NCBI GenBank assembly: GCA_002069125.1
Contig: MVZN01000001.1
Location: 5,909-69,908, forward strand
Direction: 5' to 3'
Source: Spirochaetes bacterium ADurb.BinA120
GTDB lineage: Bacteria; Spirochaetota; UBA4802; UBA5368
Length of the DNA stretch: 64,000 bases
Numbering within the stretch: the first letter of the stretch is position 1; each line of letters starts with the position of its first letter. Made by a program: the position numbers and the translations under genes. The notes below the pieces were generated by a model. It was not told the DNA's origin. It ran no database searches and saw nothing but the letters and a program-made list of their open reading frames with translations. Below are positions 3,345 to 63,614 of this stretch, one piece after another.

Positions 3345-3422
3345 GCGGCCGCCGCGCCATGAAAATCTATTGACACGATCATAGGCCCGCTTTAAGCTCC
3401 CCACTTCGTAATCACGCCCGAC

Positions 3423-4547
3423 ATGAGGTCCGCAGCTTTACAGACAATGAAAGAGACGAAGAAAAATCCGGCGCCGCAGGCGCGGCATTTTGTCCGGTTC
3501 GTTGATAAGTATTCCCCGCGAATTGACCTGTCAATAGAGAATTACTTCTCCGGGAAAAAAAAGGCCGCCGAACATCCCTTCATGGCGGAGATCTGGTCGG
3601 ATCTCGCGGAGTACTGCCTGCGGCCCGGCAAAAGGGTCCGCCCGCTCGTGCTCATCGCAGCCTTCCGCGGATACGGAGGCGAAAACTCCGCCATGCGGGC
3701 GATCATAGCGATGGCGGCCTCGCTCGAGCTAATGCACTCGTTCCTTCTCATACAGGACGATATCATCGACCGCTCCCACGTGCGCCGCGGCGGGGCGGCC
3801 TTTCACCTATTGATGCAAGGGCGTTTTTCGGGCGGTACGATAAACGAGGGCGTGGGGTCCGATGTCGCGCTGGTGGCGGCGGACGTGCTGTTCTGCGACG
3901 CCCTGCGGCTCGTTCTCGGCGCCGGGATAGGGGCGGAGGCCAAGACCGGCTTCCTTCGCCTCTTCGCGGACACCTATGAGCGTACGGCCTGGGGACAGAT
4001 CCTCGACATCGTAAACACCATGCCGCGCTCCCTTCACGCGGGCGATACGGCGGCGCACGAGGTCGGCATGATGAAGACAGCCTATTACACCGTCTACTAT
4101 CCGCTCCTGATGGGCTGCACGCTCGCGGGGGCGGCGACGGCCGGCGAGCGCCGCGCAATCGGGCGCTTTGCCCTGCCGCTCGGCCACGCCTTCCAGGTGC
4201 GTGACGACATACTTGGCGTCTTCGGCGACAGGGCCGAGATGGGGAAGTCGGCGGATTCGGACATACTCGAGGGCAAGAAGACGGTTCTCGTGCAGAATAC
4301 GATCGAGCGCCTGGGGCCTGTGGAAGGAAAGCGCTTCGAGTCCCTCTTCACGAAGGCCGCAAAGTCCGCGTCGGACCTGGACGAGATACGGGGGATGATA
4401 CGGGATAGCGGCGCGCTGGATAAGGCCGTGGATATGCACCGCAGGCTCGTCGACGAGGCCGTTCGCGCCTCCTCATCCCTCCTGATCGCCGATGCGGAGC
4501 GGGAGGTGCTCCTCGGATTGTGCGCCTCCATAGGAGCGCTTAAATAG
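3423..4547 (+). CDS. Polyprenyl synthetase family (FPP/GGPP synthase-like)
   Basis: Two aspartate-rich motifs, LLIQDDIIDRSHVRRG and FQVRDDILG. Confidence 0.8.
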   Translation: MRSAALQTMKETKKNPAPQARHFVRFVDKYSPRIDLSIENYFSGKKKAAEHPFMAEIWSDLAEYCLRPGKRVRPLVLIAAFRGYGGENSAMRAIIAMAASLELMHSFLLIQDDIIDRSHVRRGGAAFHLLMQGRFSGGTINEGVGSDVALVAADVLFCDALRLVLGAGIGAEAKTGFLRLFADTYERTAWGQILDIVNTMPRSLHAGDTAAHEVGMMKTAYYTVYYPLLMGCTLAGAATAGERRAIGRFALPLGHAFQVRDDILGVFGDRAEMGKSADSDILEGKKTVLVQNTIERLGPVEGKRFESLFTKAAKSASDLDEIRGMIRDSGALDKAVDMHRRLVDEAVRASSSLLIADAEREVLLGLCASIGALK

Positions 4548-5381: not shown

Positions 5382-6809
5382 ATGACCATCGATATCGCCG
5401 TTATTCTGATATATATTGTACTTATCAATATAATCGGGCTCTGGTTTTCGGGCGGCTCGAGCGTAAGCGATTATTTCCTGGGAAACCGCTCGGTGCACTG
5501 GTTCCTGGCATGCCTCTCCATCGTCGCCACGGAAACTTCGAGTCTCAGCTTCATCTCGATTCCGGGGCTCGCCTATGCGAGCGGAACGGGGTTTTTACAG
5601 GTCACCTTCGGCTATCTCGCGGGCCGGATGCTTGTGGCCGCCTTCCTACTGCCGCGATACTTTCAGGGCGAATACGAAACCGTGTACGAATTCCTCCAGC
5701 GCCGATTCGGGCGGACGTCGCGGCGCGTGGTTTCGGTCATTTTCCACATAACGCGCCTCTTCGCCGACAGCGTACGCCTCTTCGCAACGGCCATACCGCT
5801 TACCGTAATGACCGGCTGGGACTACAGGCTTTCCCTGGCGGTTATCGGCGGGGCTACGTTCATTTACACCTTTTACGGGGGCATCCGCTCAGTCATCGTG
5901 ACGGACGCCCTGCAGCTCGCGCTGTACCTGTTTTGCGTGGGGCTCGGCGCGTACTGCGTGATGGACGAGCTCTCGCTCTCCCTCGGCGGCGTGTTCGCCC
6001 TCATACCTTCCGCCGATCTGGCCTTCGTCTCCTCCGGCCTTGGCGGCGGCGCGGCGAAGCTTTTCGGCTCGTACAACCTTCTCACCGGCATCGTCGGCGG
6101 GGCGTTTCTCTCGTTCGCCTCGCATGGCACGGACCACCTCATCGTTCAGCGCGTCCTGTCCTGCCGCGACGCCTCGTCGGCCCGCAAGGCCATGATAGCG
6201 AGCGGCTTTCTGGTTATCATGCAGATAGCGCTTTTCCTCCTGTTCGGCCTTTTCATCAAGGCGCTGTTCGGGGGCCGGCACTTCGACTCGAGCGATTCGA
6301 TAGTTCCATACTTTATCGTAAACCATCTGCCAGCGGGACTCAGGGGGCTAATGCTCGCCGGCATCTTCGCCGCGGCCATGTCGACCTTAAGTTCGTCCAT
6401 CAACTCGCTCGCATCATCGACCGCGCTCGACCTGCTGAGGCTCAAGGAGCGCCGGCTTTCCGAGCGCTGTAAAGTGGCCGCGGCTCGCGCAATCGCCTTC
6501 TTCTGGACGCTCGCTATCATCGGCGTCTCGGTGCTATTTCACGATTCGAAGAACCCGCTGGTGGAGGTCGGACTATCCATCTCCTCGGTGACTTACGGCG
6601 GGGTACTGGGGATCTTCGTTCTGGGCAGGTTCACCGACGGCATGGACCCGCGCGCGGCCCTTTTCGGGGTTTTTGCCGGGGTTCTCGCCGTGGTATCGGC
6701 CATGGCCTTTAGCTCGATTTTCTGGCTGTGGTACGTTGCGCTTGGATTCGGGGTGTGCGTGGCCGCGGCGCTTGCCGCCTCGAAGGCGGTCAGTTGGGGT
6801 CTTCGATGA
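5382..6809 (+). CDS. Sodium:solute symporter family (SSF) transporter
   Basis: About 13 TM segments. SSF-like motifs (DYFLGNRSV, GGIRSVIVTDALQ). Confidence 0.75.
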   Translation: MTIDIAVILIYIVLINIIGLWFSGGSSVSDYFLGNRSVHWFLACLSIVATETSSLSFISIPGLAYASGTGFLQVTFGYLAGRMLVAAFLLPRYFQGEYETVYEFLQRRFGRTSRRVVSVIFHITRLFADSVRLFATAIPLTVMTGWDYRLSLAVIGGATFIYTFYGGIRSVIVTDALQLALYLFCVGLGAYCVMDELSLSLGGVFALIPSADLAFVSSGLGGGAAKLFGSYNLLTGIVGGAFLSFASHGTDHLIVQRVLSCRDASSARKAMIASGFLVIMQIALFLLFGLFIKALFGGRHFDSSDSIVPYFIVNHLPAGLRGLMLAGIFAAAMSTLSSSINSLASSTALDLLRLKERRLSERCKVAAARAIAFFWTLAIIGVSVLFHDSKNPLVEVGLSISSVTYGGVLGIFVLGRFTDGMDPRAALFGVFAGVLAVVSAMAFSSIFWLWYVALGFGVCVAAALAASKAVSWGLR

Positions 6810-9791: not shown

Positions 9792-9896
9792 ACGCTATCC
9801 AATAGCCCGCCCGGGGCGAGCCTGTCAAAGCAAAATCGCTTAAGATTGTTATCTTGAGGCGCCGCCAGGATTGTCAGTAGGTTTTCCCTTTAGCCT

Positions 9897-10012
9897 ACTC
9901 CAGAGCTTCGAGACTAACGCCCCCGGCGCGTTGCGCCACCCCCGGAGGGGGTTTTGCTGATGCCGATGGCTTTTCTTTCAGCTTTGAACTTAGAACTTTG
10001 AACTTTCGACTG
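9897..10012 (+). repeat. R1 mosaic repeat: leader CTCCAGAGCTTCGAGACTAACG, core, then AACTTT[C/G] heptamer tract
   Basis: Core CCCCCGGCGCGTTGCGCCACCCCCGGAGGGGGTTTTGCTGATGCCGATGGC, followed by gctttgaacttagaactttgaactttcgact. Confidence 0.85.
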
Positions 10013-10202
10013 CTAATCATCCTTCCCCAAGTGGGGCACGTCCCTTTGGTGGGTACTTGTTTTTAGTCGATCCCGGCGGTTCTTTGTTGACAAAAAGTCT
10101 TTGACAAAAACGGCCATAAAATACTTTTTCATAAAATCACAATCGGTAACCGCCTGCCGGGTGCATCCGGGGCGCAGTCCGGTAAATGCGGGTTTATCGC
10201 CA

Positions 10203-26761: not shown

Positions 26762-26805
26762 CGATTTCCCCTTAACGCGGCCCGGGGTACCGGGATTCGA
26801 TTAAC

Positions 26806-26836
26806 AGTTCAAAGTTCAAAGTTGAAAGTTGAAAGC
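26806..26836. repeat. 7-bp microsatellite (GTTCAAA/GTTGAAA x4)
   Basis: cagttcaaagttcaaagttgaaagttgaaagc. Confidence 0.8.
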
Positions 26837-26845
26837 TAGAATCGG

Positions 26846-26945
26846 CCATCGTCCACAAGGGGCTACAGCCCCTTGCCCTGTAATAAGGTGATCATTTGTA
26901 GAATCTGGCTAATATCTTCGGAGAACAAGGGGTTGTAATCCCTTG
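26846..26945 (+). repeat. R2 element (about 100 bp) with hairpins GGGGCTACAGCCCC and AAGGGGTTGTAA
   Basis: Second copy in reverse orientation at 63210-63311 (about 85% identity by eye). Confidence 0.8.
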
Positions 26946-26989
26946 CGATTACACGGCGAGCATATAAGGCCTTTCCGTAAATAATCCTA

Positions 26990-27320
26990 CCGGCACTCGG
27001 TATCGGAAAAACCCCCTCCGGGGGTGGCGCAGCGCGCCGGGGGATAACAGTCGAAAATTGAAAGTTCAAAGTTGAAAGTTGAAAGTTTAGCCATCGGTAT
27101 CGGCAAACCCCCCTCTGGGGGTGGCGCAGCGCGCCGGGGGATAACAGTCGAAGGTTGAAAGTTCAAAGTTGAAAGTTTAGCCATCGGTATCGGGAAAACC
27201 CCCTCCGGGGGTGGCGCAGCGCGCCGGGGGATAACAGTCGAAAGTTGAAAGTTCAAAGTTGAAAGTTTAGCCAACGGTATCGGCAAAACCCCCTCCGGGG
27301 GTGGCGCAGCGCGCCGGGGG
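26990..27320 (-). repeat. Tandem array of four about 90-bp R1 units (reverse orientation): core AACCCCCTCCGGGGGTGGCGCAGCGCGCCGGGGG plus heptamer linkers
   Basis: Units start near 27001, 27091, 27181 and 27271, differing by only a few bases. The last unit is truncated. Confidence 0.9.
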
Positions 27321-27508
27321 CGTTGAGGTGGCCGGCCGCGCCACCGGGCTATAAATTTAACACAAATCCGTTAATAAGTACAGGTTTCTTTCTTGACACC
27401 CGCTTGCTCAGGGCGTTTCAAATTAGATACCGTCATGGCCCGGCGGATTCTGGCCGTGACTCATGTTCGAGGAGGAACGGCAATAAATAGAGGGCACAGG
27501 AGGTGGTT

Positions 27509-46564: not shown

Positions 46565-46781
46565 TGTTCCTCCGGGAAAGCCCTGTCTTTTGATGAGCAA
46601 CTGAGACCTTCGGCGTTAATTTGTCAAACAAGTACGGGGTGAAATCCAGTTATTAAACGCTAATTTTACATCGATGTAACCTTGCATGCGGTCCCGATTA
46701 TACTGACGGAAAGTCGGGCCGGAAATTTGAGCATAAAGGGCCGCTTGGCTTCTCTTTTAGGCTTTTCCTTTTACTTGCTCC

Positions 46782-47112
46782 AGGGCTGCGGAGGCTAACG
46801 TCCCCGGCGCTCTGCGCCACCCCCGGAGGGGGTTTTGCTGATGCCGATGGCCAAACTTTCAACTTTCGACTGTTATCCCCCGGCGCTCTGCGCCACCCCC
46901 GAAGGGGGTTGCCCGATGCCGATGGTCAAACTTTCAACTTTCGACTGTTATCCCCCGGCGCTCTGCGCCACCCCCGGAGGGGGTTGCCCGATGCCGATGG
47001 CCAAACTTTCAACTTTGAACTTTCAACTTTCGACTGTTATCCCCCGGCGCGCTGCGCCACCCCCGGAGGGGGTTGCCCGATGCCGATGGCCAAACTTTCA
47101 ACTTTTAAGGGC
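46782..47112 (+). repeat. Tandem array of four R1 units (forward orientation), each core plus TTGCCCGATGCCGATGGCCAAACTTTCAACTTTCGACTGTTAT linker
   Basis: Leader CTCCAGGGCTGCGGAGGCTAACG, then four repeats of CCCCCGGCGCTCTGCGCCACCCCCGGAGGGGG with heptamer linkers. Confidence 0.9.
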
Positions 47113-60119: not shown

Positions 60120-60750
60120 TTCTTTTAACGCCCTCACCCCCGGCCCCCTCTCCCATTAAGCTCGGGAAAAAAGGAGAGGGGGAGTTCACGCGATGAGCTT
60201 GAGGTTTTTGGCTCAATTATGAGAGATTCTCACTCCAGGTATTCTACGAGCCTAATGCCCCCGGCGCGCTGCGCCACCCCCGGAGGGGGTTTTGCTGATG
60301 CCTATGGCCGAGCTTTGAACTTTGAACTGCTTAACGCCCTCACCCCCGGCCCCCTCTCCCATTAAGCTCGGGAAAAAAGGAGAGGGGGAGTCTCATGGTA
60401 GAATAAGTTTGAAATCGTAACCATAAAGCACCAGCTCACATACTTTCAACTTTTACCTTTGAACTTTCGACGGCCTTTCCTTTCGACTGCCTCTCCTCAA
60501 CTTCCAACTGCTTACCTCCTTCGCCCCCGGCGCGCTGCGCCACCCCCGGAGGGGGTTTTGCTGATGCCTATGGCCGAGCTTTGAACTTTGAACTGCTTAA
60601 CGCCCTCACCCCCGGCCCCCTCTCCCATTAAGCTCGGGAAAAAAGGAGAGGGGGAGTCTCATGGTAGAATAAGTTTGAAATCGTAACCATAAAGCACCAG
60701 CTCACATACTTTCAACTTTTACCTTTGAACTTTCGACGGCCTTTCCTCTG
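60120..60750. repeat. Composite repeat region: R3 hairpin (x3), R1 core (x2), heptamer tracts, and a near-perfect tandem duplication (period 276 bp)
   Basis: 60257-60490 and 60533-60746 are essentially identical over about 214 bp. R3 at 60124, 60336 and 60596. Confidence 0.85.
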
Positions 60751-62878: not shown

Positions 62879-63084
62879 TGCGCAAAGTTATATCTTGCTA
62901 TACACCCGAACGGAAGGGATCGTCCCAAAAGTTACTTTTGGGAAGTCCCTCTCTTCAGTCGATGAAAGATATAACGGCCTTCGTTACTTTCGTGGGGCGA
63001 AAGACATCATGGAAGCGCCGCGCTTCGTTACGGGCTACGCCCTACTAAGCGTCTGCTTGGATAGTCTGTAGGTTTTTCCTAATA

Positions 63085-63390
63085 CTTACTCCAGGGGTGC
63101 GGAGACTAACGCCCCCGGCGCGCTGCGCCACCCCTAGAGGGGGTTTTGCTGATGCCTATGGCCGGTTGGATTATTTACGGATAGGCCATATATGCTCGTC
63201 GTGCAAAAGTTAGGGGTTACAACCCCTTGTTCTCTGAAGATATTAGCCTGATTCCACGAAGAATCCCCTTATTACAGAGTTAGGGGCTGTAGCCCCTTGT
63301 GGACGATGACCTATTCAAACTTTGACCTTTGACCTTTGACCTTTGACCTTTGAACTTTGAACTTTCAACTTTCGACTTTCGACTGTTTCC
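63085..63390. repeat. Composite repeat locus: R1 (forward) - R2 (reverse) - 7-bp microsatellite (CTTTGAC x5, AACTTTG/C)
   Basis: Mirror image of the 26806-27320 locus architecture. Confidence 0.85.
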
Positions 63391-63614
63391 CTTTCGCCTG
63401 CTTATCATCTTCCCGCAAGCGAGCCATGCTTCTGTGGGGTTGCTTGTTTTTAATCAGCCTCTGTCTCGTTTTAATGCTCTCGGATGACGAAATGGCGTAA
63501 ATGGATTGACATCGCCGAGAAAGACGGCAATATCGATGACAAATGCGGCCCTGCGGCGGGGCGTATCTCAGGATTTATCGGGCGCAATCCTTTGCTGGGA
63601 GAATGGTGGAAGCA

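Follow-up and report, generated by a model that had tools for sequence, protein, structure and literature searches.

The 64,000 nucleotides examined here (hereafter the window) are positions 5,909 to 69,908 of contig MVZN01000001.1 from Spirochaetes bacterium ADurb.BinA120, and the subject of this work is a composite repeat found at two intergenic sites within them. Locus A lies between a branched-chain aminotransferase gene (ilvE) and a class II aldolase gene (fba), and locus B between an acyl-CoA synthetase gene and a VOC-like open reading frame (ORF). The two loci are copies of one ~240-bp mosaic of selfish-type intergenic repeats in Spirochaetota. The mosaic appears to consist of three repeat families in a set order: R2, which resembles the doublets of REP (repetitive extragenic palindromic) sequences known as REPINs; R1, a double hairpin; and a minisatellite, (SAAAGTT)n, the units of which are called heptamers below. 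An earlier note on this DNA had placed the two loci and described their architectures as mirror images, and both are present as it described. The host is an uncultured Spirochaetota bacterium of anaerobic digesters and sewage. Two window proteins have their nearest named relatives in Spirochaetes or Spirochaetota metagenome-assembled genomes (MAGs), and an acyl-CoA synthetase fragment that matches the gene in the window at 100% identity carries a Spirochaetota label, which gives the phylum only. The identical aldolase gene is also present on contigs from sewage (judged by record name) and from other ENA/JGI metagenome assemblies.

Locus A has the following features:

26801 to 26837, + strand: heptamer end, with terminal motif TTAACAGT and then CAAAGTT, CAAAGTT, GAAAGTT and GAAAGCT
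26810 to 26837, + strand: the four heptamers (row 26806 to 26835 of the tandem-repeat table, TRF)
26838 to 26991, + strand: R2 module, 154 bp
26854 to 26875: REP-b (hairpin 1), CACAAGGGGCTACAGCCCCTTG
26921 to 26945: REP-a (hairpin 2), GAGAACAAGGGGTTGTAATCCCTTG
26992 to 27043, - strand: first R1 unit, adjoining R2, made up of a 20-nt tail (26992 to 27011) and a core
27012 to 27043, - strand: first R1 core, a 32-bp double GC hairpin, CCCCCGGCGCGCTGCGCCACCCCCGGAGGGGG
27044 to 27320, - strand: three more heptamer-plus-R1 units in tandem, repeating every 90-97 bp
27109 to 27140, 27199 to 27230 and 27289 to 27320, - strand: further R1 cores, with heptamer tracts between them
27321 to 27349, + strand: outer flank, CGTTGAGGTGGCCGG...

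Locus B presents the same modules in the opposite orientation, with others outside them:

62916 to 63058, + strand: extra left modules, common to contig L025, which include the hairpin CCCAAAAGT/ACTTTTGGG
63015 to 63053, + strand: left-side module GACGCTNAGTAGGGCGNAGCCCGTANCGAAGCGCGGCGC, also at 75-117 of contig L009 and ~2815-2860 of L025
63059 to 63111, + strand: leader module, ending ...CTCCAGGGGTGCGGAGACTAACG
63112 to 63143, + strand: R1 core
63144 to 63163, + strand: R1 tail, TTTTGCTGATGCCTATGGCC
63164 to 63316, - strand: R2 module, the reverse complement of the locus A copy
63212 to 63234: REP-a
63280 to 63301: REP-b
63318 to 63384, - strand: heptamer tract of ~9 units, reading CTTTGAC/CTTTGAA/CTTTCAA/CTTTCGA on the + strand and ending GACTGTT
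63385 to 63459, + strand: right-hand module, ending in GCTTGTTTTTAATCAGCC

Several of the outer modules recur. The first ~15 nt of the locus A outer flank (CGTTrrG...) are also found past the outermost R1 in most composite copies. Leaders related to that of locus B stand before R1 at 9868-9919 and 46743-46800, and its right-hand module is common to L025 and to an element at ~10003-10068. The module GACGCTNAGTAGGGCGNAGCCCGTANCGAAGCGCGGCGC adjoins these repeats in different genomes.

Aligned with each other, the two loci are colinear and gapless, with 84.0% identity over 238 bp (63112-63349 against 27043-26806). The similarity runs through all three modules; it is not limited to separate matches in R1 and in R2 at unrelated distances. 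The figure given for R2 in the earlier note, about 85% over about 100 bp, understated the length, since R2 alone is ~154 bp. Similarly, locus B had been correctly located at 63085-63390 with end points set too narrowly, as its homology to L025 extends from ~62916 to 63460. Chance can be excluded as the source of these repeats because shuffled controls yield essentially none of them: 13 matches to the R1 core were found against 0.00 expected, two to each R2 hairpin pattern against 0.00, and 32 paired heptamers against 0.05.

Further copies were sought by scanning metagenomes with an R2 23-mer and a genome collection with an R2 20-mer. Besides the two R2 copies in the window, both intergenic, there are eight further distinct composite loci on metagenome or MAG contigs of this lineage (L008, L010, L021, L014a, L014b, L019, L023 and L025). 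The ten-row alignment has a mean column identity of 79%, and the module order and R2/R1 junction are identical in all ten copies. Variants of the R1 tail (GCCTATGGCC versus GCCGATGGCC) co-segregate with variants of R2 (TTTTGCAC versus GCTTACAC). The earlier suggestion of one composite, and not of independent insertions, is borne out by the common junction in ten of ten copies and by this co-segregation. Locus B and L025 are colinear over ~530 bp (~62916-63460), with unrelated flanking genes; the composite would be inherited and spread as a unit of ~240 bp and, at times, as a longer version of ~530 bp.

An imperfect 8-bp direct repeat, CGATGGCC, stands on both sides of R2 in all copies, and in plain R1 units the same sequence directly precedes the heptamers. 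Because all copies share this internal repeat, it looks like R2 was inserted once, in an ancestor, into an R1/heptamer unit, and the composite was then propagated whole. Locus A itself is reproduced base-for-base, over the stretches covered, in the independent metagenome assemblies L002, L003 and L024, two of which (L003 and L024) stop inside the repeats. Since independent assemblies give the same sequence, locus A is, to judge from this agreement, no assembly artefact.

The core of R2 consists of two inverted palindromes of ~20-27 nt with the pattern CAAGGGG-N6-CCCCTTG, which form the hairpins CACAAGGGGCTACAGCCCCTTG and GAGAACAAGGGGTTGTAAYCCCTTG. The two hairpins have one palindrome in common as their stem, and the loop of each is the reverse complement of the other (CTACAG versus TTGTAA). 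In L007, from another Spirochaetota MAG, the loops are exactly reverse-complementary (CTACAG/CTGTAG). The starts of the two hairpins are 69 bp apart in nine of ten R2 copies, and 98 bp apart in L014a, which contains a nested 29-nt palindrome. L007 has the same 69-bp spacing with an unrelated spacer sequence; in L005 and L006 the spacing is 47 and 71 bp, respectively. RNAalifold on both strands, as well as minimum-free-energy folds and centroids of single sequences, pairs hairpin 1 with hairpin 2 in one long stem, and the pair is predicted to be foldable into a stem of ~25-35 bp in single-stranded DNA or RNA. R2 is therefore regarded as a REPIN-like doublet, since two inverted palindromes with a spacer fold together. 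Among the copies the stems are constant and the loops variable, as expected of hairpins that are recognised as hairpins.

The palindrome in L014a, GGACAAGCGATGATCATGATCATCGCTTGTC, is ~30 bp long and lies within the R2 spacer (L014 ~1310-1345). A similar palindrome stands alone at ~400-440 of L009, and none was found when the window was searched for it. It looks like a further small nested repeat family.

The folding of R2 also bears on the proposal, made in the earlier note, that this is a structured small-RNA gene family. In this scheme the heptamer tract would supply a promoter for R2, either by itself or together with R1, with TTSAAA as the -35 hexamer and TAGAAT or TACAAT at the junction as the -10 hexamer, and the GC hairpins would form the 3' ends. 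A sigma-70-like TTCAAA-16-TAGAAT does lie exactly at the heptamer/R2 junction of locus A, the predicted folds are stable (z-scores -1.1 to -3.9), and R1 in its forward orientation ends in a GC hairpin followed by TTTT. A junction hexamer of the TAnAAT type occurs in about half of the ten copies, but in the other half the key A2 or T6 is missing, and there is no U tract after R1 in the direction of the promoter. Although 95% of cells are paired, none of 27 pairs is changed on both sides and covariation equals the shuffled mean; RNAalifold counts one compensatory pair in each orientation. Rfam gave no match at the gathering threshold over the whole window, and at E<=1 over both loci the sole match was a spurious microRNA outside R2. 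The orientation of the repeats relative to flanking genes is mixed, and the 29-nt palindromic insertion in the middle of R2 in L014a is tolerated. A small-RNA family is quite improbable on this evidence, and that part of the earlier note is not upheld. Nor is there a case for a coding region across R2 and R1, where only short ORFs of repeat sequence were found; the insertion in L014a also argues against one.

A candidate enzyme for REP-type repeats is a REP-associated tyrosine transposase (RAYT). As a lead, blastp with E. coli RAYT, IS200 and IS608 sequences gave one weak match, on contig L011, which Pfam and NCBIfam then confirmed. The unbiased scan with the R2 23-mer matched L011 as well, ~110 bp downstream of a 160-aa ORF, and the palindrome also occurs 5' of the gene. 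The product of this ORF matches Y1_Tnp (PF01797) with 46.4 bits (cut-off 23), and its best NCBIfam model is the REP-associated tyrosine transposase, with 47.8 bits, under the model cut-off of 80. It has 24 homologues, among them several with the JGI name RayT and one with a Spirochaetota label. On L035, L036 and L037-39 the palindrome brackets a gene of RAYT type or overlaps its 3' end. In all, the R2 palindrome flanks Y1 (RAYT-type) transposase genes on five other contigs, and in one case the identity extends over 25 nt. Many of the RAYT homologues (among P0243-P0264) end in NKGLQPLV, which is the palindrome translated (AAC AAG GGG TTG CAA CCC CTT). By our own reading of the codons, R2 hairpin 1 (AAC AAG GGG CTA CAG CCC CTT) specifies the same peptide with synonymous codons. 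As such termini are encoded by the palindrome, the REP overlaps the ends of these genes. Since the same palindrome flanks RAYT-type genes and spells their C-termini, the REP family to which the R2 palindrome belongs is, on the sequence evidence, associated with a single clade of RAYTs. A cognate RAYT would presumably be present in this genome, and it would be flanked by, or end in, CAAGGGGCTACAGCCCCTTG (C-terminus ...NKGLQPL).

Other features of these genes may be recorded here. Some over-extended N-termini of RAYT homologues read QGVATPC, which is the other strand of the palindrome translated. At 1066-1195 of L040 a REP doublet (CAAGGGGCTGAAGACCCTTG ... CAAGGGTCTTCAGCCCCTTG) lies in frame inside a RAYT-like gene, the protein being ~50 residues longer. 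The RAYT genes of the L011/L035 clade adjoin defence loci (L035 1-2700; L036 848-1294; L037 3040-5534). L035 carries a gene for a nuclease with a RuvC/NUC domain, cas4, cas1 and cas2, together with a repeat array that resembles CRISPR, and L036 and L037 carry genes with restriction-modification domains of the TaqI_C, Eco57I or MmeI type. At ~7170-7500 of L007 two REP doublets lie 3' of an ORF that resembles, by eye, the C-terminus of a gene of this kind. On L011 a tandem repeat of ~19 bp, GGTGTCCTGCGMCCGGAT, adjoins the REP downstream of the RAYT gene (3421-3509) and runs off the contig end.

The earlier note proposed a comparison of filled and empty sites, and in related species the orthologous spacers do prove to be empty. 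The spacer between ilvE and fba measures 748 bp here and 914 bp in L001, compared to 276, 262 and 75 bp in relatives whose aldolases are 92%, 90% and 85% identical, respectively. Gene order around locus A is kept in these relatives and the aldolase promoter region downstream is also conserved. L028 and L026 have a plain terminator, a hairpin plus T-run, where the window has ~570 bp of repeats. At locus B, in two relatives (synthetase 83-84% identical), the gene runs straight into a canonical terminator, and repeats are lacking. None of the eight syntenic loci examined in relatives contains R1 or paired heptamers. Because the relatives have short spacers with ordinary terminators, both loci are, as far as the compared sequences indicate, lineage-specific insertions. 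In the window, only weak hairpins followed by repeats are found after the aminotransferase and acyl-CoA synthetase genes (26762-26800 and 62879-62950); the relatives L026, L028, L032 and L033 have strong canonical intrinsic terminators there. Since the repeats occupy the positions of the relatives' intrinsic terminators, their hairpins probably alter, as a side effect, the formation of 3' ends or the stability of mRNA of the adjoining genes. R1 was itself considered as a terminator for the upstream gene. It fits at locus B, where it is co-oriented and consists of a hairpin plus TTTT; at locus A, 46.8 kb and 60.2 kb it faces away or follows a divergent gene, and the terminator scan did not flag it.

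Target-site duplications were sought by setting A and B against the empty sites, and none was visible at the outer borders of either; the diverged spacers of the relatives blur these borders at the nucleotide level. Their absence is as expected from a Y1 enzyme. Of the earlier description as a MITE-like (miniature inverted-repeat transposable element) non-autonomous element, the non-autonomous mobile part is retained, and the classical MITE is not, as the composite has no terminal inverted repeats, no outer target-site duplication and a core of REPIN type. Its outer ends, TAACAGT... and ...GCCGGGGGCGTTrG, share at most TAAC. Like MITEs and the palindrome-associated elements of IS200/IS605, the composite is small, non-coding, hairpin-rich and dispersed, and would depend on a transposase in trans. 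DDE-type MITEs differ in having terminal inverted repeats and an outer target-site duplication, neither of which is present in the composite. In IS200/IS605 the left and right end hairpins have the same orientation, whereas the two R2 hairpins are inverted.

The sites occupied by the repeats raise the possibility that the host retains the arrays as cis-acting DNA sites for a regulator or nucleoid protein, as BIMEs (bacterial interspersed mosaic elements) are for IHF and gyrase, and that they have spread by selection and not by transposition. Heptamers are strongly over-represented and always adjoin R1, stems are conserved while loops vary, and the repeats sit in promoter or terminator spacers. 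Comparable intergenic heptamer repeats (TAACTGA) have been proposed as protein-binding sites (PMC4679880), which lends this explanation further support. Against it, close syntenic relatives lack the repeats at both sites and have ordinary terminators instead. Position and orientation relative to genes are inconsistent, the number of units differs between strains, and no binding protein has been identified as a candidate. It is accordingly thought unlikely that the arrays are maintained as binding sites.

R1 and the heptamers also occur in the window apart from R2. R1, the 32-bp double GC hairpin, consists of GGCGC-NNN-GCGCC followed by CCCCC-NNN-GGGGG and usually by TTTT. The window has 13 copies of its core at seven intergenic loci, in each case with (SAAAGTT)n tracts alongside, and all seven are between long ORFs (those other than A and B at ~1.2, 9.9, 46.8 and 60.2-60.7 kb). 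On the R1-forward strand the order is core, 20-nt tail and (AACTTTS)n ending GACTGTTAT, after which another R1 may follow; read as (SAAAGTT)n, the minisatellite ends in ACTGTTA. Their orientation relative to neighbouring genes is mixed. The other members of the family in the window are these:

1172 to 1241, + strand: heptamers, then one R1; no R2
9868 to 10068, + strand: leader, one R1, heptamers and right-hand module; no R2
46743 to 47106, + strand: leader and four tandem R1-plus-heptamer units; no R2
60226 to 60747, + strand: a tandemly duplicated 266-bp unit made up of R1, heptamers, a hairpin module (CCCCCTCTCC...GGAGAGGGGG) and a further stretch of heptamers

A relative of the CCCCCTCTCC...GGAGAGGGGG hairpin module precedes the heptamers at ~1100-1170, and others are found in L014, L021 and L023.

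The arrays have periods of 75-97 bp, with two to nine heptamers per tract. The number of R1-plus-heptamer units is one at locus B, four at locus A and in L002, and six in the strain variant L001. L012 and L021 differ by a 198-bp indel block bounded by R1 copies. At 60257-60747 a 266-bp unit is tandemly duplicated, and because the copies are 100% identical the duplication is very recent. These changes in unit number, the 198-bp block and the 266-bp duplication are, by their sequence form, what recombination or slippage leaves behind. Among simple repeats, heptamers have been reported as the class most prone to slippage (PMC4679880, citing Mrazek 2007).

Recombination of this kind could suggest that the composite is immobile at present, a relic of a few old segmental duplications or recombinations among R1/heptamer arrays in which one ancient R2 insertion was carried passively. 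The presence of CGATGGCC on both sides of R2 in all copies, with variants inherited within subfamilies, suggests that R2 was originally inserted once. R1 copies have demonstrably recombined with each other, and the A and B copies have diverged by 16%. However, the copies lie in unrelated gene contexts and are bounded by the same module ends, the orthologous sites of relatives are empty, and R2 has the REP core of a RAYT-associated family. A wholly passive relic is considered rather unlikely.

Taken together, these results indicate that the composite is a REPIN-bearing mosaic repeat, and neither a classical MITE nor, in all likelihood, a small RNA. The best reading overall, and one that we hold to be fairly probable, is that it is non-autonomous mobile DNA, spread by a RAYT and reshaped by local recombination or slippage; RAYT-driven spread of the composite is the part of this account that we infer. 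A RAYT encoded by a single-copy gene would act in trans on the hairpins in single-stranded DNA and would disperse R2, or the composite as a whole, to further intergenic positions. The arrays then grow and shrink locally, as strain comparisons show, by homologous recombination or replication slippage between R1 units and within heptamer tracts. A host function would be unnecessary to explain the composite. Annotated plasmids and phages gave no similarity match.

Several observations weigh against mobility of this kind. With the confirmed family as query, tblastn found no RAYT on any contig that carries R1 or within the 64-kb window. Those RAYT contigs whose palindrome matches best have a G+C content of 40-47%, compared to 57% here, and because of this gap they are taken to be from other organisms. 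The RAYT on L034, the one contig labelled Spirochaetota, is flanked by a different palindrome. The classical REPs of enterobacteria and pseudomonads have a conserved tetranucleotide, GTAG, at the 5' stem foot; in R2 this head is not at the stem foot, GTAG being confined to the loop of hairpin 1 (GGGGCTGTAGCCCC when read R1-forward), with TTACAA at that place in hairpin 2. Conservation among the copies exceeds a minimal REPIN and reaches the ~46-nt linker, R1 and the heptamers. R1 and the heptamers are tied to no enzyme, and segmental duplication by recombination could explain part of the spread.

A bolder alternative is that the three modules form one new type of composite element, of ~240-530 bp, which is moved whole by the RAYT, the heptamer tract with its ACTGTTA end being the landing site or a by-product of nicking and rejoining. 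There seems little chance of this being right. If it were, it would connect HUH transposition mechanistically with the way in which minisatellites arise, and provide a case in which the host had come to depend on such elements instead of canonical terminators.

Mobile DNA of the non-autonomous sort favoured above has well-known counterparts. REPINs (PMC3116915; for the RAYT groups, PMC5581495) likewise consist of inverted short palindromes with a spacer that are predicted to form one long hairpin. REPINs are multicopy and strictly extragenic; here there are two intergenic R2 copies in 64 kb and eight further loci on contigs of this lineage. In both cases the palindrome flanks Y1/RAYT genes (here on other contigs, from other organisms) and an outer target-site duplication is lacking. 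The present repeats differ in the position of GTAG, which lies in the loop, and in that the doublet forms part of a larger conserved unit with R1 and a 7-bp minisatellite; the cognate RAYT is inferred.

The BOX elements of Streptococcus pneumoniae have the structure boxA-boxB(n)-boxC, the BIMEs of E. coli are mosaics of REPs and linker motifs, and the STRR (short tandemly repeated repetitive) sequences of cyanobacteria are intergenic heptamer repeats. BOX elements share with the composite a modular intergenic mosaic, a variable tandem internal module, extensive predicted structure and lineage-specific proliferation, and they are best read as parasitic DNA able to affect co-transcribed genes (PMC3049150). 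The likeness of BOX and BIME elements to the composite is in organisation only, with no relationship claimed in sequence, and they belong to other phyla; here the variable module is a double hairpin plus heptamers, and one module is a REP of RAYT type. The TAACTGA heptamers of Beggiatoaceae, Cyanobacteria and Bacteroidetes also form short intergenic arrays of 7-mers (two to nine units) in which the unit number varies, consistent with polymerase slippage (MacGregor 2015, PMC4679880). In the present case the heptamers are SAAAGTT/AACTTTS, always joined to R1 or R2 and with a fixed ACTGTTA end, and they are not just upstream of start codons.

The R2/R1/heptamer composite is a new family of a familiar, junk-like bacterial repeat and no new type of system, and it leaves current concepts of bacterial repeats unchanged. 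A REP survey that sampled Spirochaetota noted that published REP information on its sampled strains had been lacking (PMC12306157). The composite adds an undescribed family of REP/REPIN type, with a plausible RAYT partner clade, in a phylum barely covered in the REP/RAYT papers cited above. It is also an example of distinct repeat families nesting into a larger unit, which then spreads and forms arrays. Where the repeats stand in place of ordinary terminators beside core metabolic genes, they could affect expression. Their length polymorphisms at the strain level could serve as markers, and the arrays break metagenome assemblies: contigs L003, L004 and L016 terminate within them, and L018, a metagenome contig of 1172 bp in which the 46.7-kb locus's leader is followed by six or seven R1 units and linked to R2 from locus A, was probably assembled chimerically across repeats.

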